DNA of 64,000 nucleotides from Amoebidium appalachense. Lineage: Eukaryota; Protista; Ichthyosporea. Positions 1 through 64,000 of the stretch are shown one piece after another (within the stretch, counting starts at the first letter, position 1; every line of letters starts with the position of its first letter). Both the position numbers and the translations under genes were made by a program. The DNA is taken from positions 8,281,059 to 8,345,058 of the forward strand of contig CAVNZM010000002.1 of NCBI GenBank assembly GCA_963693365.1, written 5' to 3'. The notes below the pieces were generated by a model. It was not told the DNA's origin. It did not search any database and saw only the letters and a program-made list of their open reading frames with translations.

Positions 1-1381
1 CAATATGGCATTTCAATGCGTGCTAGAGAACAGGGTGTGTATACATATGTGCATGTCACGGTGTGTGCGTCTGCGTGTTTGTCTGTGTGTGAGTGGACGT
101 GTATGTATGCCATGTGACGTGTGCTTATTATGCCTGTGTAAACAGTTGCAATTGTGTGTGTGTATGTCAATGATTGAGAGTCTTCTTAAATTCCCTGGTG
201 CAGACCTGCACGCGTTTGCCTACAGTACCGTGGCATGTGTGCTTGTATCATGAGTGATATGAGTGTGTGTGTCTGTTGTTGGTGATGCATGGCTTGCATG
301 ATGGCGTATGATGCATGTATGATTTCCGCAAGACAGTTTACGCGCCCGGGGGGCAGGGGGAGGGGGGGGGGGGGGGGGGGGGGATATCATATTAGAGCGA
401 GAGTTAAGGGGGGGGGGGGGGGGGGGGGGATAAGTGGAGCATGCAGAAAGAAGAAAAGGAATTCTGAACTTTAAGTGCTATGTGTGCGTGTGGGCAAATT
501 TGAATCATTACATATGTGCCACCACAAAGATTGGCATCTACTACTAATGATAACCGTGCAGCAGTCTGTGAGCGTGCCCGAGAGCGTGCGTGCTCATGAT
601 CATGCGTGTGTGTGCCTGCATGCGTGTATGTGCGTATGTGCGTGATACGTGTGCAGTGGGTGGCTGCATGCACGAAATATGGTTTTGTTTTTCTCCTGCA
701 GCTATCTGTTTAACGTAATTGCACGGTGTATCTGTGGTGTGTGTGTGTGTGTGGAGTACGTGCGCTGGCAGCACCCGTGCATGACGCATGCGTGTGTACA
801 TATGTGCGTGCTTGTGTGTGTGTGAAAGCCTGAATGATTTTGTGTGTGTGTGGGGGGGGGGGGGGAGGGGGGGAGGGGGGGGCGCGTGGGGGGGGGGATG
901 GGGGGGGGGGGGGGGGGGGGGGGGAGGAGATGCCTAGCCCTGGCAGCAGGTCACAGAGCCCGATATCGATGATGTTAAATACTGTGATCATTAGTGGATA
1001 TAGAGAAAGTGCCAATAGCACCATTTTAAGTTTTCAGGTTGATTTCCAATATATGCATACATGATATCATGAGTCATTTTTGGGTTATCCCTCCGATCCC
1101 TGGCCATGGGTGGGTGTGGTCCCCCCCCCTTCTCCCCCCCCCCCCCCCCCCCCCCTCTCTCCTCCCCTCAAAAGTTAGGTTTGTGAATGATGGTTTAGCT
1201 TAGCTGAGCACGTAGATAGCACCCTATTAAACTAGTGTATTGTCGGTGCTGTGTGGTAGACGGTTCCCGCGCGAGGGCCTAAAAAGTCGGGTCTTCAGGG
1301 ATCCGGTGTAACAACTTGTGACGTGATAAAATAAAAATCAAAAAAAATTCTGCTAGAGGAGCCGGGCCCCGCGGGGGACGG

Positions 1382-2785: not shown

Positions 2786-4402
2786 ATGACGTTCCTTATC
2801 GAATTCATTCGTGATATCAATCGAAATGTCTCCCTCACAATACTGTCCACTCTATTGGCAGGCATTGCTGTTGGCATGACAGCCAGCACCATTCAGTCTC
2901 CATTCATCGGTGCACTCACACAATCAGCAGGGTATATTGGGTACATTTCAATGGCACAGGGTTTTGCACGGTTTTTAGTCTCATACCCATCTGGTTATCT
3001 CGCAGACCGTTTTGGCCGCGCGATTGTTCTCCGCTATTCCGGAATCGTCGGTGTCGCCGGTGCTGCACTGCAAATGGTAGCACTCTGTGAGCCTTTTGGG
3101 GCAACTGCATGGCAGCAAACATACGCCCTTCTCGCCGTGGGTATTTGCATGCAGGAAGTCTATGTTGGCACCTCGCAGCCACCAATGATTGCTCTCTACG
3201 CTGACTCTATCAAGCCGGGTAGGCGGTCCATGTACGAGGCTGCACGGCAAATCGCCAACCTGCTGGCGTGCACCATCGGCCCGGTGTTGAACATGGTCAT
3301 TTTCTCGTTGTATGGAAACACGTGGTCCATGTCCCTTATGCGTCTTGTTTATTTCATCGGCATGTGCGTGCTTGTGGCTTCCATGGCCCCCCTCCCCTTC
3401 TTCAAAGATATGTGGTCCCACCAGACCGCCTTGGATGCCGAGTTTCGCAAGGACGCTGATAGTATCTGCACGGATGGCCAAACGGACAAGAAAACAACCG
3501 AGCACATGAACACGGAAACCAGCTCTCCCTGCCCTCTCATTTTGGCCGACGGGCCTAGTGTAATTGAGCCGCAGAATGAAACGACCACAACGGAAGCGAC
3601 CTCACTCGGCAGCCCGTCCAAAATCAACATTCTTTTTGGCGAAGACAGCAAGAAGCCAAAAGATGAGCGGACGCCACACGAAACAGCTCTGCCTCTTGAA
3701 GAAGATGCAGTTACGAGCAAGTTTACATGCCGTTTTAAATTTCCAAGTGTATCGCTTGAATACGTCCCACACATGCTCATTCTTGCGGATTTGCTTGATC
3801 TAACGGGGACGGGTATTGCCAACCGATACGACACCCTGTTTCTCACACAGGAGCTCACGATGTCCCCAACATCTCTCAGTGCTCAAATTCTTCTTCAGAC
3901 TTTGTTTTCAGCAATTGTCGTTGTTCTTGCAAGTGTGATTGCTAGGTATATTGGCCGTCTGCGTTCCATGTTACTTTTAAGAACCCTTAGCGTCGCTATG
4001 GTAATGTGTATGGGCACTTGCCTTGCATTTTGGACAACCTACCCCCTCCTCTTTTGCACCATTCACCTTGTGCGCACGAGTTGCCAGGTTGGAACCTACC
4101 CTCTCATGAACTCACTTCTTATGGATCACGTACCGTCGAATCAACTCGCTAAGTGGTTTGGTATTCAAAACATGCTCTACCTTGCGAGCTATGGCGCTGC
4201 CTCTGTCGGTGGTATTATTCTTGATAGGTTGGGGTTCCAGGCTCTGTTTCTCGTTACTGGCTCTATTCGGTGCTTGGGCCTACTGCCTTTGCTTGCTATT
4301 TTCTCTGTTACCAAGGAAGAAAACGATGTTGTTGTTGATAGCAAAGAGCAGGAGGAGACAAACAAGAGTGTGGATGGTAAGCCACTTCCCCCTGCTGCAT
4401 AG
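2786..4402 (+). CDS. Major facilitator superfamily (MFS) transporter, 538 aa, intronless
   Basis: Long clean ORF. Two hydrophobic halves are separated by a hydrophilic loop. MFS motif A appears as 'GYLADRFGRA' and its second-half echo 'IARYIGRLR', with a late 'GIILDRLG'. Confidence 0.92.
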   Translation: MTFLIEFIRDINRNVSLTILSTLLAGIAVGMTASTIQSPFIGALTQSAGYIGYISMAQGFARFLVSYPSGYLADRFGRAIVLRYSGIVGVAGAALQMVALCEPFGATAWQQTYALLAVGICMQEVYVGTSQPPMIALYADSIKPGRRSMYEAARQIANLLACTIGPVLNMVIFSLYGNTWSMSLMRLVYFIGMCVLVASMAPLPFFKDMWSHQTALDAEFRKDADSICTDGQTDKKTTEHMNTETSSPCPLILADGPSVIEPQNETTTTEATSLGSPSKINILFGEDSKKPKDERTPHETALPLEEDAVTSKFTCRFKFPSVSLEYVPHMLILADLLDLTGTGIANRYDTLFLTQELTMSPTSLSAQILLQTLFSAIVVVLASVIARYIGRLRSMLLLRTLSVAMVMCMGTCLAFWTTYPLLFCTIHLVRTSCQVGTYPLMNSLLMDHVPSNQLAKWFGIQNMLYLASYGAASVGGIILDRLGFQALFLVTGSIRCLGLLPLLAIFSVTKEENDVVVDSKEQEETNKSVDGKPLPPAA

Positions 4403-7527: not shown

Positions 7528-8594
7528 GTGGTAGAGGAAAACTGTGTGGGCGGCCAATGATTCACACTGTGGCTATTGGAACTGGAACATCACCAAACAT
7601 TTTCCCACATTTTTTCCCCTATGTACACGTTCTGAACATGCAGGGAGTCCGGGGTCACGTGGTGACTGGTGAACATAATATTTGGGAATTGGCCCGTGAT
7701 CTCCCGACGAGACTCCCGTGCGGGTTATGCTGGGGCTGACAACATTCCATTCAACATTCCATGTCCACTTGGAGCGCTGGGATGCCACGCGTGACGCGGC
7801 CGGGGCAGGGGCTTGAAATAAAAAACCCATATACATATATATATTAGTGTTTTGGACCCTGACACAACGGTAGCGATTTATTATTTTCTATATGAATAAA
7901 GAGGTTTTATAATAAGTGACCGTTTTCGCAGCAGTGGGGTCGTGCGGTCCCATTCGATCGCGACCGAACCCATGTGAGCATGTACCGTACAGTATGACAT
8001 GTGAGTCGTACGTCGACACAGTAGAGTTAAAAAAATTGTTACCTACTTGCTGAAAGAAAACAGTGCTTGATGGCAGTATCTTTAGCATAAAAAAAGGCCC
8101 GTTCTTTTATGGTGTTGCGGAGAAATAAAGACCACCAATGTTGTTAACCCCTTAAGAAGCGTGCCCAAAGTCTGCACACGTGCTTGTGCAGGAATGTGTA
8201 CATGTATTTTTAGCCTCTGGCATGTGCCCAATACACACGAAGATTTGGCTTACATGCTGACTGCATCATTAGGCTATTTTTATGGTCCTTTCTCTCATCG
8301 TGTTGATACATTATCCGAAACTTTTATAAGCGACGCTTATAACTCCTACAAATCTTACGTATTTTCGTATATATGTACATAGTGGCTCTAAATGTAGAGT
8401 CGATTTGTACTGGGCCGGGCCGTGACTGTATTAGTGCACATTCAAAGTTCATGAGAATTCGAAGGTTCCCAGGCTGGGGACAACTAGGGACAGAAGCACC
8501 AAATGGCTTGCAGCAATAAAAAGAAGTGCTACATCAGAGCGTCAGCAGTGTTCGCATGGGGCAGTTTACTAGCACGGGTAGTTGTGAGTAAAAA

Positions 8595-9233
8595 ATGAAA
8601 ATGATGTCTCTTCTCCCTTTCATGCTCCTTTCCGTAGCCGCCGTTTGTAGCTACGGTATGGCCACACTCTCAGACCCGCAAGTGCAAGGTAGGGCGGCAG
8701 CAACCAACCTGTGCAGCGCAGGCCCCAACTACTGGTGTCAAAACTCAACAACCGCAAGCCAGTGCGCGAGTAGCTTGTCTTCTACCACAGGGTGCACACA
8801 GTATTGCAACCTTCCACTCGAGTACCCTAACCTCTGGAACAACACCTACTGTAAAGGCATCAACAGCGGAACAAATCTGGTGCCTTGTTCTCTCGGCCCA
8901 AAGGTCTATTGCATAACCATGAGCATGCTCCTTTCCTGCCACCAATCGAACTCTATTCCGCAGTGTTTCGCATACTGTGATGTCTACAGGGACCTTTCGA
9001 GAAACAGTCTTTTCTGTAAGTACATCTCCACGACCTTTGGTAGCCCATGCCTGAGGGGGCCTGCATATTACTGCGCTTCGAAGACCAATCTGAGCAAGTG
9101 TGGTATGACCGCCAAGATGAGCCAATGCCAGAGCTTGTGCAACCAAACGTCTACCTACCCATACCTTCAATATAGCAACATTTGCAACCCGGGCTACTCG
9201 ACACTGTACGGCGCATTGCTTCCTACATACTGA
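8595..9233 (+). CDS. Secreted cysteine-rich protein with three saposin A-type (SapA)-like repeats, 212 aa, intronless
   Basis: N-terminal hydrophobic signal (MKMMSLLPFMLLSVAAVCSYG). Three repeats begin CxxGPxx(W/Y)C (CSAGPNYWCQNSTTASQC; CSLGPKVYC; CLRGPAYYC), matching the SapA consensus CxxGPxxWCxxxxTAxxC. Each repeat has 6 Cys. Confidence 0.8.
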   Translation: MKMMSLLPFMLLSVAAVCSYGMATLSDPQVQGRAAATNLCSAGPNYWCQNSTTASQCASSLSSTTGCTQYCNLPLEYPNLWNNTYCKGINSGTNLVPCSLGPKVYCITMSMLLSCHQSNSIPQCFAYCDVYRDLSRNSLFCKYISTTFGSPCLRGPAYYCASKTNLSKCGMTAKMSQCQSLCNQTSTYPYLQYSNICNPGYSTLYGALLPTY

Positions 9234-11997: not shown

Positions 11998-14579
11998 ATG
12001 AATACACGTTTTTTTTCCGGTTTGGTGGCGTGTCTGGTCACTATTATGGGTCCCTGGGGAGCCGATGGTTGCCAGTGTTTGACTGTGCTAAGAACGACAT
12101 GTGCAAAGCTGGCAAGTCAGCCTAATACCATACGCCTGAGGATCGACAGAATAAGAAGAAGGTGAGTTTTTTTTTACAATAATAAAGCCCTCGCCTTTGC
12201 ATCCCTTATCTATTCTTGAGCTGTGTGCAAAACACTTTTCCATAGTTACTGTGTGGTAGCTAAGCAGGTGTCAACCGAGACCCAATACATATGAACGTAT
12301 GCTGACCTACCTGAAATTTGGTGGATAGTTACCTGTTGGAATACCTGCCCTTTGGGCCATCTCTCTAACTCTGTTGAAAAATCTGCACTATCAGGTACCA
12401 AACGAAAAAAAAACACCCTCAAATTACTAGAATGCATATGTTCCCCGGGACTTGGAATGCCAACCCACAAAAATGGTCGAACAGCCAACACGGAGCAAAA
12501 AAAAAAAAAAAAAAAAAAAAAGCGCAAAAAAGACAGTAGGTATCCACACACCAGCACCCTAAAGCGGTGTATGTGCATGCAACCACAACCATACATACCG
12601 ACAAGCACACACACAAGTCCGCATACCCTGTGTCCACTCGCCGGGGGAAAGTTCATGTACGTGCCTGCACGGGTTGTTCCTCTTTCCCCCTCCCCCCCCC
12701 CCCTGTACACCCCCCCCCCCCCTTTCTTTGCATCCCTTTCATACGGAAAAACACACACACGTAGAAACCCCTTTGTGACAAACCACACACACACACATAC
12801 ACACGGTTGTGAATCAACACACATGTGCTCGCAATCGCAATCATGGCCCATTATGTATGCACACTTACACAAGGATCGAATTGAGCCATTAAGTACATGC
12901 ATGAGGTATGTTAGGCGGTAAAATTATGGACTACCATATCTGCCTGGCGCACAGAGTGGACAAACACATGCCGCATGAATACTACCAAAACAATGAAATT
13001 CATTATTTGGTCGAACAATAAAACCATGTAGAAGGCCTGAGATAAATCTAGAGCATTGGTGTCATGTAGTTATGCGGGAGGCGGCACTGAAATGGTTCAG
13101 TGTGGCGGTGAGTATGCATTTGCCGTGTATCGGTTCTTTTGTTCACATATCCCAAAGTGTGCCCTCCAACACCAACACCAAGTCTTAGACCTTCGTCATT
13201 CAAGCTCAGCTGGGTTTTCATGGCTAGCATTACGGTGTTGTGATTGGTTCACAATATGGGGGTTTAGGCCGTCCGTAAGGCGGCACTGTGTCGTTCTTCA
13301 CATCAAAAACTTCTATTCCGCCTGCTATTGCTAAGCATTGGGACAAAAGTAATTGGCTGATATCAAAGCAGGTTTTTTTTTTTTGTGTGTGTGTGTGTCT
13401 GTGCAGGGAGGTGGAAGAGGGAAGAGGGGGGGAGGGGGGGGGGGGGGGGGGGGAGGAGAAGAGGGCATGACCGTGGTCTTGATGGAAAGGAGAGGTGGGG
13501 GGAGGGGGGGGGCAGGGGGATGATGCACGAATCTTTTTTATTTTTTATTTTTATTTTTTTTCGGGGGGGGGAGGGGGGGGGGGGGGGGGGGGGAGGGGGG
13601 GGGGGGGAAAGTGAGGCACATGATGGGATGCTAGCGAGTGGCTGGAACATAGCACTGCAGCATGCCGCCCGTAATTCCAAACCCTGACTCTAACCCTGCC
13701 TGCCGCAGGAGCAACCGCATTCGCTACACAGCCTCCGTGCTCGAAGTCTTTCTCAGTGACGTCATCTCAAAGGTTCGCCTCTAACCCCCCCTCCCCCTGC
13801 CTCTCTTTCAATCCCGTCTCCCCCCCCCTTCCCCCCCTCCCCCCCCCCCCCCCTTCCCCCCATCCTTCCCCTTCTAAACACGCGCCCACACACTCAAACA
13901 CCCACCCATACATATACCAACACAGAGACACGCACACACACTGTGACACGCGTGCACACAAACACAAACACTTCAACACACACACACATCCATGGCATAC
14001 CTTCACAAACTACGACAGGCAACAACGTGCCAAATCGCTCATCCCAATCCCCCCCCCCCCTCCCCCACCCTCTCCCTCCCCCCTCCCCCCTCCCCCTGTC
14101 TCCACCCCACCCCCTCTACCCAACCCCACCCAAACACACACAAATCCCCTCCCGCCATTTTCCTCCATGCCTAGACGACAAACAGTACTATGCGCACGGC
14201 ATTAGATCACGGTAAAGAATAGCACCCGGTAATCTAGATGCATGACATTAACCCCCTGTGGTTGGACAGGGAGACACGGTGACGCTTGAAACCAACAACG
14301 ACACCATCTCATGTGGCATACCGACGCTCAAAAAGAAGGACACTATCGTCGCCTCCCTCCCTGAAAAATTCGAGGAATTCCCCGAATATCGTCTGAGTGC
14401 ATGCAACTACTATTCCTCTTGGAAAGAGGCTCAACGCACGGCAGATTTTGCGTTTCTTCGAACGCTGAAAAGAGAGAGGGCCTTGGATCGGTGTGGGTGC
14501 ATTGACCCCCTGACAGAACATGAGGTTTTGGATGGGTGGTCCGGCGTGGGAAAGATTGCCAACACAACGGTGTGTTGGT

Positions 14580-14623
<44 letters not shown>

Positions 14624-14948
14624 CCCCGCCCCCCAACCCCGATCTGATGCTCAAATCACCCCCCTTCTCCTCCACACCCACCACCTCCATTCCTCATTCT
14701 CACCTGTATTCACGAACCAATCCTACCGTGGTAATTTACGATCTCTTAGAAAATACTTCTTTGCTCACTTTTACCTTCCCCCCCCCCCCCCCCCCCTCCT
14801 CCCCAGGTCGAAACTCGGGTACTGTGGATGACGTGGGCCCCCCCTGAGGATGGGCTCTGCTTATTATGCATCCTCTTTATGTATGGCTTGCATTCTGCAT
14901 CGTGTTATCCGTTTGTTCTTGTGTACTTCGTACTTTTTGACGCATTCA

Positions 14949-14981
<33 letters not shown>

Positions 14982-18389: not shown

Positions 18390-41258
<22,869 letters not shown>

Positions 41259-42554: not shown

Positions 42555-50703
<8,149 letters not shown>

Positions 50704-50879: not shown

Positions 50880-51689
50880 TCACATCGATTTTTTCTCCCG
50901 ACTTTTCATCATGGCAGGTATATAAGATCTTTCGCTTCTTTCTTTTTGTGACGGGACTGAAGTCCGGTGCAGGGGGGATGACCTCCAGGCAGGTGCTGGC
51001 GCAACTGGGGTGATGGTTGTTTTCTGCGGGCTGCAATGAGCTGGTGAGCTACCTCTCTCCATCATGGTTCTGTCTTCGCGTCCTTTACCCGCCGGGGTGT
51101 GCGGATGGTACTCTGATGGCCGCGAGGCTTCTCGTTTAGGGGGTTGGCGGCCCTCTGGGTTAGCGACGGCACCCTTTTTCTATGATGGCGGGCACAACTA
51201 AGTTTTCTCCAACTCTACGTTTTCTCCTTGGGGTGCACCTGCGGCTTGGTTGACGTCTCCTCCGCGGCACGCGTCCGGGGTAGTTTGTAGCCGACTGGGA
51301 CGTCGAGAAGCTTCCTCAGCCGGCTACAGTTACGGGCCCTTGTGGTGGCAGTTAGCTCTATAGCCTTGATTTGTGTACCCGCTTGCTTGGTAGTGTTGGT
51401 TCCTTTTGCATCTCCCGTTACAGCTAGGCTACCTTGTTTGGCTGCTATTATCCTTGGAGGGTTACTCCTGTCGCCGCGCCCCCTAAGGTAGTTTTGCAGT
51501 CTTACATGTTCTGTATTGCTCTTTTGAAACCTCGTGTGCTGCTCCAGTGATAGAGTTTTGGCCGAGGGCTGTGTCTCTAGAGCAGTTACAGATGGCTTCC
51601 TTGCAGTTTGTAGCCTAGACATCTTCGTGGCTTTGATGGAGCAATCTAGCCATGCCTTAAGCTTCTCATTTTGTACCCTGCCATCGATG
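50880..51689 (-). CDS. Possible 3' exons of an orphan gene encoding a basic, low-complexity protein
   Basis: Segments 51689-51239 and 51179-50880 join in frame across a 59-nt GT-AG intron (~250 codons). No recognisable domain; upstream exons are unresolved. Confidence 0.35.
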
Positions 51690-52310
51690 CTATTTACATG
51701 TTAACGTACACATTTACTCAAATTTCTGTGTGTTAACGTACACGTTTCACTCAATGATTTCTGTGACTCAATTCATATTAGGTCACCTTTATTGAGGTTT
51801 TTTTGTTGTGGCAGCCGAGATATCAACTTATCGTTTTCACTCCTGCCTTTAGTGTTTATTTGTATTTTTATACCTTTGGGTCGACGTCCGTATTCCAGTG
51901 AGCCTACTTCTCATTTGAGTGACTCGAAAATCGTCTCTCGAGATATCTGGGATATCTCTTTTTCGTGTCCTTCGAACATATGAGCACATCAATAAAGTCA
52001 TTATGAAAAAAAATATTTTCACGTATGGCTAGCTAAATGTTTACTGTTTTGAAGGATAACGGATTAAGGACGCTTTTGCCTGAAGCAGGTTCACAATTAG
52101 CATTGTACATTTTGGCCCCCTCCCCCTCCAACCCCTCCCCCTCCCTCCCCCCCCCCCCCCCCCCCCTTTCTCTCCCTCTCTCTCTCTCTCCCCCCCCCCC
52201 CCTCCCCCCCCACCCACCCACCCACCTACCCACCCACTCCTCATATCCTCCCGGCACACAACACACACACACACACAGGAGCAGGGACACGCACGGGCAC
52301 ACACGCGCAC

Positions 52311-53722: not shown

Positions 53723-55814
53723 GGCAGGATAGGTCCTGGAGTGTGAAGCAATGTTCAACCTAAATCTGAACCGGCCGAAGCCTCCACATCTCTGAGCAGA
53801 TTATACGTTGTGCATGTGCAAGTGTGTGTGTGTGTGTAGTGGTAGATATTTTCGTGGTGCAAGTGTGTATATTTGCTCGTGTGTGTACGTGGTGGGGGAG
53901 AATAACATCAATTTCTGAGCATGTTCGCGCGCACGCATGTCGGTATTAGCCATGGATGTGTGCGAAAGTGTGCTTGTCAATCATCCACGCGCGGCTACGT
54001 GTCGGTCCGTGTGTTTCTGCTTGTGCATATTTGGCTATATGTGTGCGTGTGCCTGCGCGCTCAACACATGGCCTAGTGTATTGTCAACGCGTGCTAACAA
54101 TCAGTCTGTGTCTTATGTGTGTGTGCACGGGGGTGCGTGGGCGTGTTGACTGTGTGCTTGGTGCACACCTGTGGTGTATGAAAGATATGTGTGTGCACAC
54201 TTATGTGTTTGTATGCATCTGCCTGTGCGTGTGCTTGCATTACGGTTTGTGTTTTTGTGTTTTAAAGTGTGCATGTGTGTGCAGGCGCCTGTGTTTGATT
54301 ACACAGCCTGAGTACTTTGTTGGTAAGTTTTTGTATGTGTATGTGTGCATTTACAGATTCCTGCCGTGCAGCAGCCCATTATTCATGCGGTTACAAAAAT
54401 TAGGGGACGGAGCGAGGCGCCCAGGGAGGGGGAGGGGGAAGGGGGAGACGGGGGGGACGGAGGGGGGGGGGAGGGGGGGGGGGATGTATGCATTAGATGT
54501 TTGGAACTGATATATGAAGGAGGAGACGTCAAAAGGCAAATCACAAATACCAGAAAGGAGGGTAGGGTGGTAGGGCGGTAGGTCTCCGATCAGGATGAAT
54601 CGGGTATGTTCACGGGAAAATACACAGACCTGCCCTTATATAATATCCGTATGCAGTAAGTGGGTATTCGTTTGTGCGCTACGTGGATGTAATCGGGAAG
54701 CAGGAAAAGAGGGGCGGGGTGGTGGTGATAGGTGGGAGGAGGGGGAGGGGGTGGGGGGTGGGGGGGAAGGGATGTACATTCGTTACTGCGTGTGGTGTGT
54801 GTGTGTGTGCACGTGCGTGCGTGTGTGTTTGAAGGTGATGGAGGTGGGTGTGGTGTTGGTGGTGGTGGTGGGGGGGGGGGGGGGGGAGAGGGGGAGGGTA
54901 TCTGTGTGTGTGAGTCGGGTGTGTGTCCGTGTGTTTGTAAGGGGGTGGGGAGGGGGGAGCGGGGGGGGGGGGGGGAGGGGAGGGAGGGGGATGTCGGGGA
55001 GGAGGGAGGTAAGCAGAAATGCCGGGAAGCAGGAAAGGTGATGGGGGGATGGTCAAAGGGGGGTTGTGAATATGTGTGCGTGTTAAATGTGCAGTGCAAG
55101 TGTCGCTTTATGTCTGTATGCCTGTGAGCATGTCTACCTCCCCACCTAAGGTTCACGCATCGAGCCACACTAAATGCACAAACACGTGAACTGTTGCTCC
55201 ACGCAGGAACACGCTGCAGACCTTTGTGTCATGGGGGGTTCACACATGGGAAGTATGTAGAGAGGGGGAGAAAGGAAAAAACATAAGCTATTGGTAAGCA
55301 GACAGCCTGAGGAGGGCAAGAGGCAAGAGGGCAAAGCGAGATGAAAAGGAGGGGAGAGGGTGGGGTGGCCACTCGGTTGTGGTCGGGAAGGAAGGACGGA
55401 AGGGGGCAGTGTGGTGCTCGTACATGTTCTTGTGCAAGGGTGGGGGAAAAACAGAAAGACGTGTAAGGAAACCAAGTAGCTTTTATATATCTTTATTTTC
55501 ATAGTTAACGTTGCTTATATATATCAAAGTTTCATAATAACTAGTTGTGGATAAAGCGGGCCAGCTTCTAAATGCCCTCAACAGTGCGCGTATAAAAGTC
55601 AACATTATTATACATGGAAACACCATGGTGGAAATTTTTTTTTTTAAAAAAATCCTACAGTGGCCCAGCCACCCCTCTCTCTTTAAGCTTTACCTTAAAG
55701 CTCGTGTGTGCATTGCATTCGTCAGCAAAAAGACAAAAAAGGCCAAGTAAGGCAAGCGTCGGCTACATCACAAATCATTCGCAGGTGGGAGAACAGGTTA
55801 ATCTACGCACGTGT

Positions 55815-56762
55815 TTATCGTGGCCCGGTAGTCAGGTCGGGCAAACCAGCATACACGTTGGACTCGATACCGCACTCGTTGGAGCCCTGAGCAATACGGA
55901 AATAACCACTCTCGCCCCAGTCCTCACCCCAGCTGTTGGCAATGATCCAGTAGGGGGTGCCTGCCTCCTCCCCCCAGCCAACAACCTTGATGGCGTGGCC
56001 ACCCATAACGGGGCCAGTCACGTGCTTGTACACACCCCCACGGTAGCTCATAAAGTCCTGGTACACGGTGAAGGCAGCCTCCACGGGGCCATTCTTAAAG
56101 ATCTCCGCCTTGATTTTGTTAACCCGCTTGTCAATCGGGTCGAAGAACGACACGACGCTGTATGCATTGCTGGCCTTGTAGATGACCGGCTTCTCACCAT
56201 CCTTGCATGTCTTCTGGCAGGGGCCGGCATTGCCCGCCCCGGCAGTGTACGGCTCACACTCGTCAGATGGAACACCTCTTGAGGACATGTACTCCCACAC
56301 GTTGCGTAGCTGGCCACCGTGGCAGCCGAGGTCGGTGCGGTCACAGGCGACGAGGTACTGGGGTGAAAGGATGACATCCTTGCCAGCTATGCAGAAGCGG
56401 TCGGAGAGAGCCTCAGAGGCGGCAAAAGCCCAGCAGGAACCACACTTCTCCTGGTTGCGCACGGGGTGCACACACTTGCCCCACTTCTCACGGCCGTCGA
56501 AGGTGGATGGCAGGGAGCCGATGACATCGTCGTAAAGAAGGTCGTTGGCACCAACGTAGGGGGCGTCCTCATCGACCAGAGTGCCCATCATGGAGATCAT
56601 ATCGTCCATGGTGTAGTTGGCAAACCGTGTGTTCTTGCCTGCAATCCACGTACGGGTTGGGTGGTTGTTCACTTGGTTGATCACCTCATCCTCGTGGGCG
56701 AAGTTGTTGCGGTAGGCGGCAACGAAGCCGACAACGGCGCTGAGGGCAAGAAGCTTCTGCAT
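55815..56762 (-). CDS. CTSB: Cathepsin B-like cysteine protease (C1A), intronless preproenzyme
   Basis: Signal peptide MQKLLALSAVVGFVAA. CatB-type propeptide (VN..TWIAGKN.RF). Active-site motifs QEKCGSCWAF, SDRFC, GGHAI and IANSWG, then RIAQGSNECGIES. The ATG at 56762 is preferred over the longer ORF-track start. Confidence 0.95.
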   Translation of the reverse strand: MQKLLALSAVVGFVAAYRNNFAHEDEVINQVNNHPTRTWIAGKNTRFANYTMDDMISMMGTLVDEDAPYVGANDLLYDDVIGSLPSTFDGREKWGKCVHPVRNQEKCGSCWAFAASEALSDRFCIAGKDVILSPQYLVACDRTDLGCHGGQLRNVWEYMSSRGVPSDECEPYTAGAGNAGPCQKTCKDGEKPVIYKASNAYSVVSFFDPIDKRVNKIKAEIFKNGPVEAAFTVYQDFMSYRGGVYKHVTGPVMGGHAIKVVGWGEEAGTPYWIIANSWGEDWGESGYFRIAQGSNECGIESNVYAGLPDLTTGPR

Positions 56763-59336: not shown

Positions 59337-59894
59337 AGAGAGAGAGAGAGAGAGAAAAAGAGAGAGAGAGAGAACAACCCACCTTCACATACTATATGTA
59401 TCATCAGGTGCACCACTTCATAGCCACTACCTGACATCAAAAGCTCGCATCAATCCTGGTAGCTGCTCGAAGCCATTTTCTCGTGCAAATCTATTTTCTC
59501 CCCCAAGCCTTGAAGGCCCAGGATTCCCAAGGATGAGGTGTAGGTATCTGCAACCACAAAAATAGACTCAATTTACAACACCTAGAAACTTTCATAGTGT
59601 CTGGAAAAATGGGGATAATCTGTGAGCAAGGTGAAAACAAGGACGGGAAATGTTACGGCAGCGTGAAGCGGGAGCGGACCGTGACAGTTGGACGAGGCGA
59701 TGGGTGGGAAGGGGGGAAGGGGGAGAAAAAAAAAGGGAGGGAGGAGGCGGGGGGGGGGGGGGGGGGGGGGAGGGGGGAGGGGGGAGGGGGGGGAGGGGAG
59801 GAGGAGGACACAGACACATACATGGAAACGCATGCACCGATAGAGAAGCAAGGCCTCCTAATCTCTCTCCCAAGGCCTCCTAGATTAGGAGATT

Positions 59895-59976
59895 ACAAAA
59901 AAGGCCTTGGAGAGAAGTCGAAGGGGGCGTACATAAACCCCCCCCCCCTTCGACTTCTCTCCAAGGCCTTTTTTGT
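59895..59976. repeat. Perfect 33-bp inverted repeat (hairpin), 16-nt spacer
   Basis: acaaaaaaggccttggagagaagtcgaaggggg (59895-59927) is the exact reverse complement of 59944-59976. Confidence 0.9.
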
Positions 59977-60415
59977 TAGTCGAAGCTTGTTGCGATTGAG
60001 CAACTAATTGTGACGCAACCTTTATTCAATCGCTCAAAAAAAGAAGACTGATAAGGTCACACGTTTTAGACTGTATCTATATGCGGCAAGCTCGCTGCAG
60101 CTTTTGCCAGCTTTTCTTCGCTGTAAAAACCTTTTGGCTGGTGTAGTTTACACACTGTGTACTCTCTGTGTACTTAATCAAGATTATTATTGGTGGCCAC
60201 TGGTGCCTTTTATGTTCAGGAGTTTATATGCAGCAGTGAAGGGGCCTTTTGCCGTGTGTGTTTCTGTAGCCAGAGCAAATACTCCACTATGTTGTGATTC
60301 AGATCCGGAAAAGAGCTTGCGGTGATCACAGGTTTTGATAGCAACGACTTTCTTCTTCACATAGCACCAAAACTTCGCTCCACTCAATCCTGCTAGTGAT
60401 AACAAAAGATATACG

Positions 60416-62887
<2,472 letters not shown>

Positions 62888-63336: not shown

Positions 63337-63672
63337 TCCCCCCCTCCTCTCCCCTCCGGGTTGTAATTCTTTGTGCTTTTACTTCCTCCCCCCCCCCCCC
63401 CCCCCCCCCCCAAAACAATAATGGCCAGGTTAAGTTCCCCCTCTATTTCTCTTTGTCTCCATGTCCCCCCCCCCCCCCCCCCCTCCTCCTCTCCCCCTGC
63501 CCCTCCCCCCCCCCCCCCCCCCCCCCCCCCCTTCCCTCCCTCCCCCTTCTCCATAGGTTAGGGAGTCGGGGAGCTTTGTAGAAGCCCGGCTTATGCTCTA
63601 CTTCTCTGCTTGTTTTCTTTGGTTTTTGCTGCTTGCAGTTTTTGTAGACTCTGTTTTCTTAGATTGCTGCTC

Positions 63673-63830
63673 CTTGAACAACCCTGCTCGTCTTTGGCCA
63701 AGACGGGTGGACTCGCCTATTGCTGTTGAAACAAAGTATGGGTTGGGAACCACGCGCGAGAGGTTAAAGAGTCGAAACCCATGCTTTTGTGGAGGCATAG
63801 GAACCCCCTCGATGATGGGCTCTGCTCAAG
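63673..63830 (+). ncRNA. Unclassified structured RNA element, copy B (sense, downstream of the last visible UCK donor)
   Basis: Same conserved words (ACCCTGCTCGTCTTTG, AAGACGGGT, GTCGAAAC, GATGGGCTCTGCT) and the same stems as copy A, with divergent but still complementary stem sequences. Confidence 0.65.
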
Positions 63831-64000
63831 TGTCTTCTGCCTGCACGCTTAACTGTTTGATTTTGGGTTTCCCACGTTTGTGACGTTTTGTTGTGGCTCT
63901 TTGTTGTCTCTTCCATATTTCCAACCCTCTAACGCATACATCACCCCCCCGCCCCCCCCCCTTCCCCCCTCCCCTTCCCAACCTCTTGTTATGCATACTC

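Follow-up and report, generated by a model that had tools for sequence, protein, structure and literature searches.

Genes and repeats in the window

The window, the whole stretch of 64 kb analyzed here, is intron-rich eukaryotic DNA containing 112 runs of C and 63 runs of G, each of ten or more letters. A multi-exon gene for an SNF2-type helicase lies on the minus strand at about 18400-41300, with long CA/TG and C/G runs in its introns; from its motifs we take it to resemble ERCC6/Rad26. Amid the intron-rich genes there are long uninterrupted reading frames for an MFS transporter (2786-4402, plus strand, E = 1e-28), a saposin A-type repeat protein (8592-9233, plus strand, E = 8e-12) and cathepsin B (55818-56759, minus strand). 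The cathepsin B gene is intronless, and its best matches are labeled Ihof (64%) and CFRG (57%), with Sphaeroforma arctica (54%) and Awhi (53%) also among the ten best matches listed. The labels Ihof, CFRG and Awhi presumably stand for Ichthyophonus, Creolimax and Abeoforma. As a single gene from a family with paralogs, it makes the host a likely, though not a certain, ichthyosporean. Open frames at 14252-14560 (plus strand, directly upstream of copy C below), 51218-51700 and 60190-60927 (both minus strand) have a protein-like composition and no Pfam matches. An inverted pair of about 60-90 nt (26342-26431 and 26751-26837) around an intronic insert of about 400 nt is MITE-like by eye, a near-perfect long inverted repeat centered on a C run (59850-59975) is possibly a small DNA element, and an intron contains a direct duplication of about 150 nt (62385-62560 and 62600-62760).

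Two long copies of a repeat, A and B, lie between C-rich tracts, accompanied by copy C, fragment D and a minus-strand scrap (Table 1). Copy A is in the sense orientation within an intron of a RING-finger gene. Copy B lies downstream of a GT donor, with no further exon within the window, and is probably intronic. We take its host gene to resemble uridine kinase; the short exons have no Pfam or PDB matches. Copies A, B and C and the scrap share a 3' end, the motif GCAT(A/T)CA and one to four letters before a C run. An earlier note on this DNA had counted only two full copies, which holds within the window but leaves aside the three further fragments and thousands of family contigs. To copy A align 7,343 (X1) and 9,323 (X3) contigs of two public DNA runs, and to copy B 1,624 (X3) and 1,721 (X8) contigs of public runs, where these counts are of assembly-graph pieces and not of copies. 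They show the repeat family to be very abundant.

Contig joints run from the 3' tail through a C-rich spacer into a head truncated at many positions (48904, 48915, 48916, 48919, 48981 and 49003 in copy A; 63750, 63815, 63826 and 63884 in copy B). Three of the five window copies are 3' fragments, and such 5' truncation is a feature of Penelope-like elements (PLEs) of the Naiad/Chlamys clade. The partial tandems and (C)n insertion bias of that clade, features not unique to PLEs, are also present; Chlamys PLEs are described as targeting (C)n in the accessible part of PMC8557442. Within the window the copies are solitary and not of type I, and the tandem units of non-LTR retrozymes are absent. We found no RT or GIY-YIG reading frame within the 64-kb window, where four unexplained open frames lack an RT or EN Pfam match. 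The most likely identity of copies A and B is the 3' end of a Penelope-like family, probably of the Naiad/Chlamys clade, of which no coding part is seen here.

Two runs from one sample that we guess to be RNA (X13 and X14) give 10 and 200 pieces on copy A and 7 and 89 on copy B, which fits a few expressed master copies and leaves transcription unproven. No back-joint of the kind left by a circular RNA occurs in the stretches compared with these two runs, and contigs cannot exclude circles.

Table 1. Positions of the repeat copies and their structural elements in the window, and comparable records in the accessible consensus files of PMC8557442 (stem lengths in bp)
Feature	Position	Strand	Remarks
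Host intron of copy A	48513-49867		GT..AG; splits RING domain of RING-finger gene; copy A in sense
Copy A, whole repeat	~48705-49040	+	between C-rich tracts
Copy A, structured domain	48782-48942	+	core intact; predicted cut 3' of 48855
A, P0	48782-89/48935-42	+	
A, clamp helix	48791-93/48929-31	+	
A, hairpin P1	48796-816	+	loop within palindrome UUGAUCAA
A, stem II	48819-24/48881-86	+	
A, helix V	48825-38/48899-914	+	14 bp, one mismatch, removed by family letter 48901 A
A, GAAA	48887-90	+	
Copy B, whole repeat	~63557-63945	+	between C-rich tracts; 5' edge uncertain
Copy B, structured domain	63673-63830	+	core damaged in window's copy
B, P0 5' strand	63673-63680	+	pairs 63823-30; 7/8 in window, 8/8 with family 63825 C>T
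B, clamp helix 5' strand CCC	63682-63684	+	pairs GGG 63817-19, one U past A9
B, hairpin P1	63687-63707	+	8 bp; loop within palindrome UUGGCCAA
B, stem II 5' strand GACUC	63710-63714	+	G10.1 = 63710; pairs 63769-73; covaries with A and loose-end variants
B, helix V 5' strand	63716-63724	+	pairs 63794-801; links stems I and II at their far ends
B, stem III 5' strand and GUU	63733-63744	+	GUU 63742-44; cut 3' of 63744 predicted by analogy only
B, stem I 5' strand GGG	63745-63747	+	pairs 63806-08
B, hairpin W	63748-63765	+	small, variable; in stem I-stem II linker; weak (-1.9 kcal/mol)
B, stem II 3' strand, GAAA, stem III 3' strand	63769-63787	+	GAAA 63774-77
B, stem I 3' strand and core	63806-63815	+	UCGAUGA in window; CUGAUGA in family
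Copy C	14806-14950	+	5'-truncated just before GAAA; third subfamily; core CUGAGGA
Fragment D	61376-61500	+	degraded 3' fragment; weak match
Scrap	54480-54506	-	B-type 3'-terminal fragment before C tract
Naiad_Bfor			II 6/6, I 2, III 7, V 16, GUA; split form, by eye
Naiad_Plae			II 6, I 5, III 6, V 9, GUA; split form, by eye
Naiad_EuTe			II 6, I 5, III 10, V 5, UUC; split form, by eye
Record before Naiad_Plae			Naiad-2_Movir by table order; II 5, I 4, III 6, V 8, AUC; split form, by eye
Naiad_Ovul and near-identical record before it			II 6, I 4, III 5, GUA; split form, by eye
Record before Naiad_Adux			II 4/5, GUU; probable split form, by eye
Intact CSG records	File S5 parts 14-16		Nippostrongylus (by table order), three families; parts 15 and 16, one record each

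Hammerhead words and their helices

In copy A the words of a hammerhead ribozyme are GUU (48853-55), GAAAC (48887-91) and CUGAGGA (48921-27). Stem III has 9 bp (48846-54 with 48890-98) and stem I the four pairs of GGAG/CUCC (48856-59 with 48917-20), and after a 2-nt UG insert GGCUCU is pairable with GGGGUC in 6 bp that include three G-U pairs. Copy B has GAAAC at 63774-78 and the core UCGAUGA at 63809-15, with stem I formed by the 3 bp of GGG/CCC and an A-C mismatch at the fourth position. The words and pairings that the earlier note had named, GGCUCU/AGAGUC in copy B among them, are all present, and it was right in calling the element hammerhead-like, in setting it apart from types I, II and III, and in requiring a fold-back or a trans dimer. 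The spacing that it gave as identical differs between the copies, at 32 nt in A and 30 in B from H17 to G12, and 34 and 35 from G12 to C3.

GAAA lies between stems II and III, there are an A15.1-U16.1 pair, an NUH triplet (GUU) and G10.1-C11.1, and CUGANGA directly follows the 3' strand of stem I in A, in C and in the B family, though not in the window's own copy B. GUU is a weak hammerhead triplet. The blocks S, G and C of the hammerhead, as defined in PMC10085705 (Eckert et al. 2023), occur here in the order S, G, C, which is none of the circular orders of types I, II and III (CGS, GSC and SCG). Together with a helix joining stems I and II (helix V) this order is shared with type SGC.

The variant core of copy B, which the earlier note had listed among its caveats, is not the family state. 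At 63809 C replaces T in 98.6%, and at 63810 T replaces C in 99.2%, of the summed contig depth in X3 (about 98% and 99% in X8), so that about 99% of family depth reads CUGAUGA. The core letters in the window are either private to this copy (decay) or an artefact of assembly or polishing, and the core of copy B as it stands in the window is likely inactive. The third difference of this copy from about 99% of family depth is at 63825, where T replaces C in 99.7%, completing the outer helix P0; of the three places, this one matches the A-type letter. Since family B reads CUGAUGA, and A and C read CUGAGGA, N7 is the sole differing core position. The A type has 24 listed differences, none in the core words, a constancy that alone says little because only 8 positions vary in 48785-48940.

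The RNA-guessed runs contain further core letters. In X14 C stands at position 3 in 2,027 of a summed depth of 4,363, and the remainder keeps U with no listed change at G8. A divergent haplotype (X13 record 5, covering 63769-63832) has GAUAC, U3 and an altered clamp strand, and its UGUA upstream is possibly compensating, a pattern like that of normal pairing between 14 and 17; its share at 63776 is 17% of X14 depth versus 0.1-0.3% in the DNA runs. Natural hammerhead core variants exist, some of them weakly active or inactive (PMC3088659, accessible part).

Between A and B, pairs change on both sides three times in stem III, once each in stems I and II and twice in P0, counts that come from few sequences. 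The loops of P1 are palindromic in both copies and in two Naiads, that of copy B being common to the Naiad record before Naiad_Plae, and on paper the P1 self-dimers are stronger (-25.6 and -29.7 kcal/mol) than two hairpins (2 x -8.0 kcal/mol).

A loose SGC descriptor finds only copy A on both strands of the 64 kb, with 6 matches in 100,000 dinucleotide shuffles of copy A and none in 100,000 at A's stem lengths. A descriptor of the split core set out below, written post hoc with the element already seen, finds only copy A (strict core) and copy B (relaxed core) in the window and has no match among 100,000 shuffles of either copy. The hammerhead words are thus genuine and well beyond what chance would give. 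Rfam has no match at the gathering score in the 64 kb and none at E ≤ 3 around either copy, where only one (A) and two (B) chance-level matches occur (E 3.8-6.3). Nested folding, which cannot hold pseudoknots, gives z-scores of -1.6 and -0.65 for the two copies, with 14 and 45 of 200 shuffles equally stable (not significant). That this is an ordinary SINE-like repeat, its structured RNA unrelated to hammerheads and its core words coincidental, would accord with the Rfam and folding results and the post hoc descriptors, and is hardly credible in view of the shuffle rates, of variation at N7 only and of an identical architecture in Naiads that share no stem sequence.

ARAGORN finds no genes in the window and inspection by eye shows no tRNA-like head, which leaves a tRNA-derived SINE without support. 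By eye we also rejected an HDV-like fold (wrong partner order, no P4), a box C/D RNA (B and C do not retain the boxes) and the reading of GUCGAAAC as a T-arm (no stem). A scan with the 3' pattern gave 23 matches, 22 among metagenome contigs and one among viral contigs, and the remainder of the element accompanies none of them; the 5' hairpin pattern had no match in viral contigs.

The strand that pairs in stem II

Copy A has GGGUC before GAAA and copy B has GAGUC, while loose ends of the third subfamily have GGGUC or AGGUC; a strand upstream changes in step, as GACCC, GACUC, GACCCA and GACCUA. In one loose-end variant a second stem II pair, in addition to the one counted above, changes on both sides; the third-subfamily pairings join loose ends of different contigs from the same run. 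The downstream GGCUCU is invariant and loses its fifth and sixth pairs in variants. With the upstream strand, stem II places G10.1-C11.1 directly before GAAA, and in copy A helix V begins right after stem II and ends two bases before the 3' strand of stem I, the place of the published I-II helix.

The earlier note had built stem II from GGCUC or GGCUCU with a 2-nt insert, which amounts to a plain type-SGC hammerhead, and had suggested that the "competing" upstream GACCC/GACUC strand acts as an off/on switch. Six pairs are indeed possible in A and in B, both A-to-B changes lie opposite U, the two duplexes are close in B (-6.0 versus -6.4 kcal/mol), and the published block definition allows inserts of one or two bases (PMC10085705, accessible part). 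Yet no pair of that duplex has changed on both sides, the compensatory changes being in the upstream strand, which covaries as the partner in stem II. The downstream duplex is the weaker in A (-5.1 versus -8.7 kcal/mol) and in the loose-end variants (-4.7 versus -8.7; -2.2 versus -6.7), it must melt the clamp, and it gives helix V no connection with stem II. Among the six clear Naiad records described below it amounts to 0-2 bp, against 5-6 of 5-6 for the upstream strand. The downstream stem II is probably wrong, and we regard the arrangement built on it as very improbable.

With stem II formed upstream, the structure is stranger than the one proposed before, because the CUGANGA block is broken. 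The core strand is likely interrupted between A9 and G10.1, which in copy A (48927 and 48819) are 108 nt apart in sequence. They would be bridged by A9, one U, a 3-bp clamp with an 8-bp outer helix, UG, P1 and one or two bases. From 5' to 3' the order is clamp, P1, 5' strand of stem II, V, 5' strand of stem III with GUU and stem I, and then the small hairpin, second strand of stem II with GAAA, second strands of III, V and I, CUGANGA, U and the clamp partner. The intact block C of type SGC, with a stem II strand 0-2 nt after CUGANGA, is absent; the covarying partner lies upstream.

Types SGC and CSG were validated by cleavage, and depend on a fourth helix that connects stems I and II at their far ends (PMC10085705, accessible part). 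The strand order is not the new topology that had been suggested, since S-G-C is already published as type SGC; what appears new here, on the pairings above, is the split at A9/G10.1. The present element resembles these types in that S-G-C is a rotation of CSG, in the extra I-II helix, in the short link between stem I and the second strand of stem II, and in helices V and III sometimes being joined with no spacer. In the published types CUGANGA runs into stem II, whereas here a clamp and a hairpin interrupt it. As far as the accessible text goes, their examples come from metatranscriptomes and metagenomes and from no named organism's genome (CSG from two metagenomic sequences), whereas here we have a high-copy eukaryotic genomic repeat.

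Like PLE type-I hammerheads and retrozymes (PMC4209133 and bioRxiv 10.64898/2026.07.22.740005, both in part), the element places a candidate ribozyme in the terminal repeat of a PLE or short derivative, with a U after A9, palindromic loops and possible dimers; PLE hammerheads usually carry a base between 9 and 10.1 (PMC4209133). Those ribozymes have an intact core strand, a short stem III and often full tandem arrays, whereas here we find a pseudoknotted topology, a long stem III and dispersed truncated copies. In two Xenopus genomes retrozymes are depleted from introns (the bioRxiv report, accessible part), and copy A is intronic. The PK hammerhead (Zhan et al. 2024, PMC11300833, accessible part) offers a parallel in that helix II can be supplied in a non-standard manner and the ribozyme still works. 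There a pseudoknot replaces helix II and an extra stem-loop is tied to helix I, unlike the normal G10.1-C11.1 stem found here, whose 5' strand is at the other end of the domain. The PK variant of Weinberg 2015 is described in PMC11300833 and PMC12192606, and for variants that carry extra helices PMC13725137 refers to Weinberg 2015, Eckert 2023 and Forgia 2023 (accessible parts). The literature searched, which included few subscription papers, contains no hammerhead split at A9/G10.1 (the Eckert supplements could hold related forms), no permuted hammerheads in Naiads and no hammerheads in ichthyosporeans. In accessible text, the words ribozyme, Penelope and SINE do not occur in the ichthyosporean genome paper PMC11244446, nor the stem "ichthyospor" in the main text of PMC8557442.

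Naiad and most Chlamys elements were reported without canonical hammerheads (PMC8557442, Craig et al. 2021, accessible parts), some records carrying only the annotations "HHR_core" or "HHR_half_core" for unplaced core halves. We searched the available consensus files, with 54 Naiad families, for core words and read the matches by eye. Among the matches listed, the same layout is found in the 3' UTR of several Naiads, with the split clear in six records and probable in one, and with wholly different stems (Table 1). By our parsing the six clear records represent five independent lineages. In each split record a hairpin precedes the stem II strand and a clamp of 4-10 bp follows 0-2 bases after CUGANGA, the position that the clamp has in copy B. 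At least five further records contain an intact type-CSG hammerhead (CUGANGA, stem II, helix V, GUC and GAAA), and five of these consensi are nematode by name or table order. About eight ambiguous Naiad/Chlamys matches (supplement parts 13, 16, 17, 18, 19 and 49) are outside both counts. No motif was recognized in the consensi of Naiad_Mley, Naiad_Dcar and Naiad_Ppla, read whole, and no split form in Chlamys among the matches listed. A Naiad record of order S-G-C in part 17 of the available File S5 has an 8-bp stem I, a 10-bp stem III and GUA, with an indistinct stem II after about three inserted bases, and is possibly a further variant.

Proposed working and its biological meaning

We assign a probability of roughly 0.7 to the reading that A and B are the 3' ends of a Penelope-like family of the Naiad/Chlamys group whose RNA is a predicted hammerhead with its core strand broken between A9 and G10.1. 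This form would correspond to a type-CSG hammerhead closed between III and V and reopened at A9/G10.1, the one place in the core where bulged bases are known to be tolerated; tandem terminal repeats could give rise to such a change. The clamp and P1 would keep A9 adjacent to G10.1, and helix V would take the role of the tertiary helix between stems I and II. The active site would lie at the junction of stems I, II and III, with the cut after GUU; in the Hydra-clade table of PMC8557442 (accessible part) a U is frequent at this site. By analogy, the predicted cuts are 3' of U48855 in A and of U63744 in family-type B, in agreement with the earlier note. On both strands 0-7 bases connect helices V and III, and a monomer would therefore have to bend sharply; in Naiad_EuTe V is shorter than III, which by a rough count of helix steps makes a monomer hard. 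Cleavage would occur either in cis, in a molecule bent where V meets III, or from one copy to another in trans, and A9 and G10.1 would come from separated segments in both cases. Such a ribozyme may process tandem or read-through transcripts into templates for retrotransposition; processing of element transcripts was proposed for PLE hammerheads (PMC4209133, accessible part).

The fold and the ancestry could be the same with no working ribozyme, the structure serving as a 3' signal for the RT or cleaving slowly with the aid of protein. Several observations fit this. U17 can pair with A14, simply lengthening stem III, and the U3 and GAUAC variants occur in the RNA-guessed runs. The contig data contain no step in depth at the predicted site, and record starts or ends do not pile up there in five runs, although these are contigs only and cannot show RNA ends. 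Copy A is tolerated, intact and in sense, in an intron. Counting against the predicted cut itself, RNA-guessed contigs bridge the site in copy A (X13 record 10, X14 record 20) and in copy B (X14 record 9); because the halves would remain paired after a cut, religation is plausible and could explain them. In the accessible literature, the minimal hammerheads of metazoan PLEs have low activity in vitro (PMC4209133), and Naiads spread without canonical hammerheads (PMC8557442). Against a non-working RNA, CUGANGA (with N7 alone free) and GAAA are kept in three subfamilies whose arms have turned over, and nematode and other Naiads retain textbook triplets in the available consensi. On balance we find a fold without function unlikely.

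Returning to the split-core hammerhead, it is likely an overlooked form of a putatively self-cutting RNA, to judge from its layout recurring in Naiads that were reported to be without canonical hammerheads. More tentatively, the Naiad/Chlamys elements from ichthyosporeans to ctenophores, molluscs and crustaceans might carry a hammerhead split at A9/G10.1 that assembles between two RNAs, one placing its apex on the base of its partner, with the palindromic P1 loop as the point of nucleation. Cutting would then require an encounter of two terminal repeats, with possible re-ligation to a circular template. We regard this as conceivable but doubtful.

The scheme of six hammerhead permutations rests on three unbreakable core blocks, and in the accessible text of PMC10085705 it assumes that they are uninterruptible. 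A natural and repeatedly conserved break in block C, if true, would be a seventh arrangement, missed by standard descriptors and by Rfam. A core insertion site that accepts whole helices would matter for the design of ribozyme switches. Nematode retrotransposons would become a home for type CSG, which was described from two metagenomic sequences. If true, the split would also answer why the abundant Naiad and Chlamys elements seem to be without the hammerhead that other Penelope-like elements keep.
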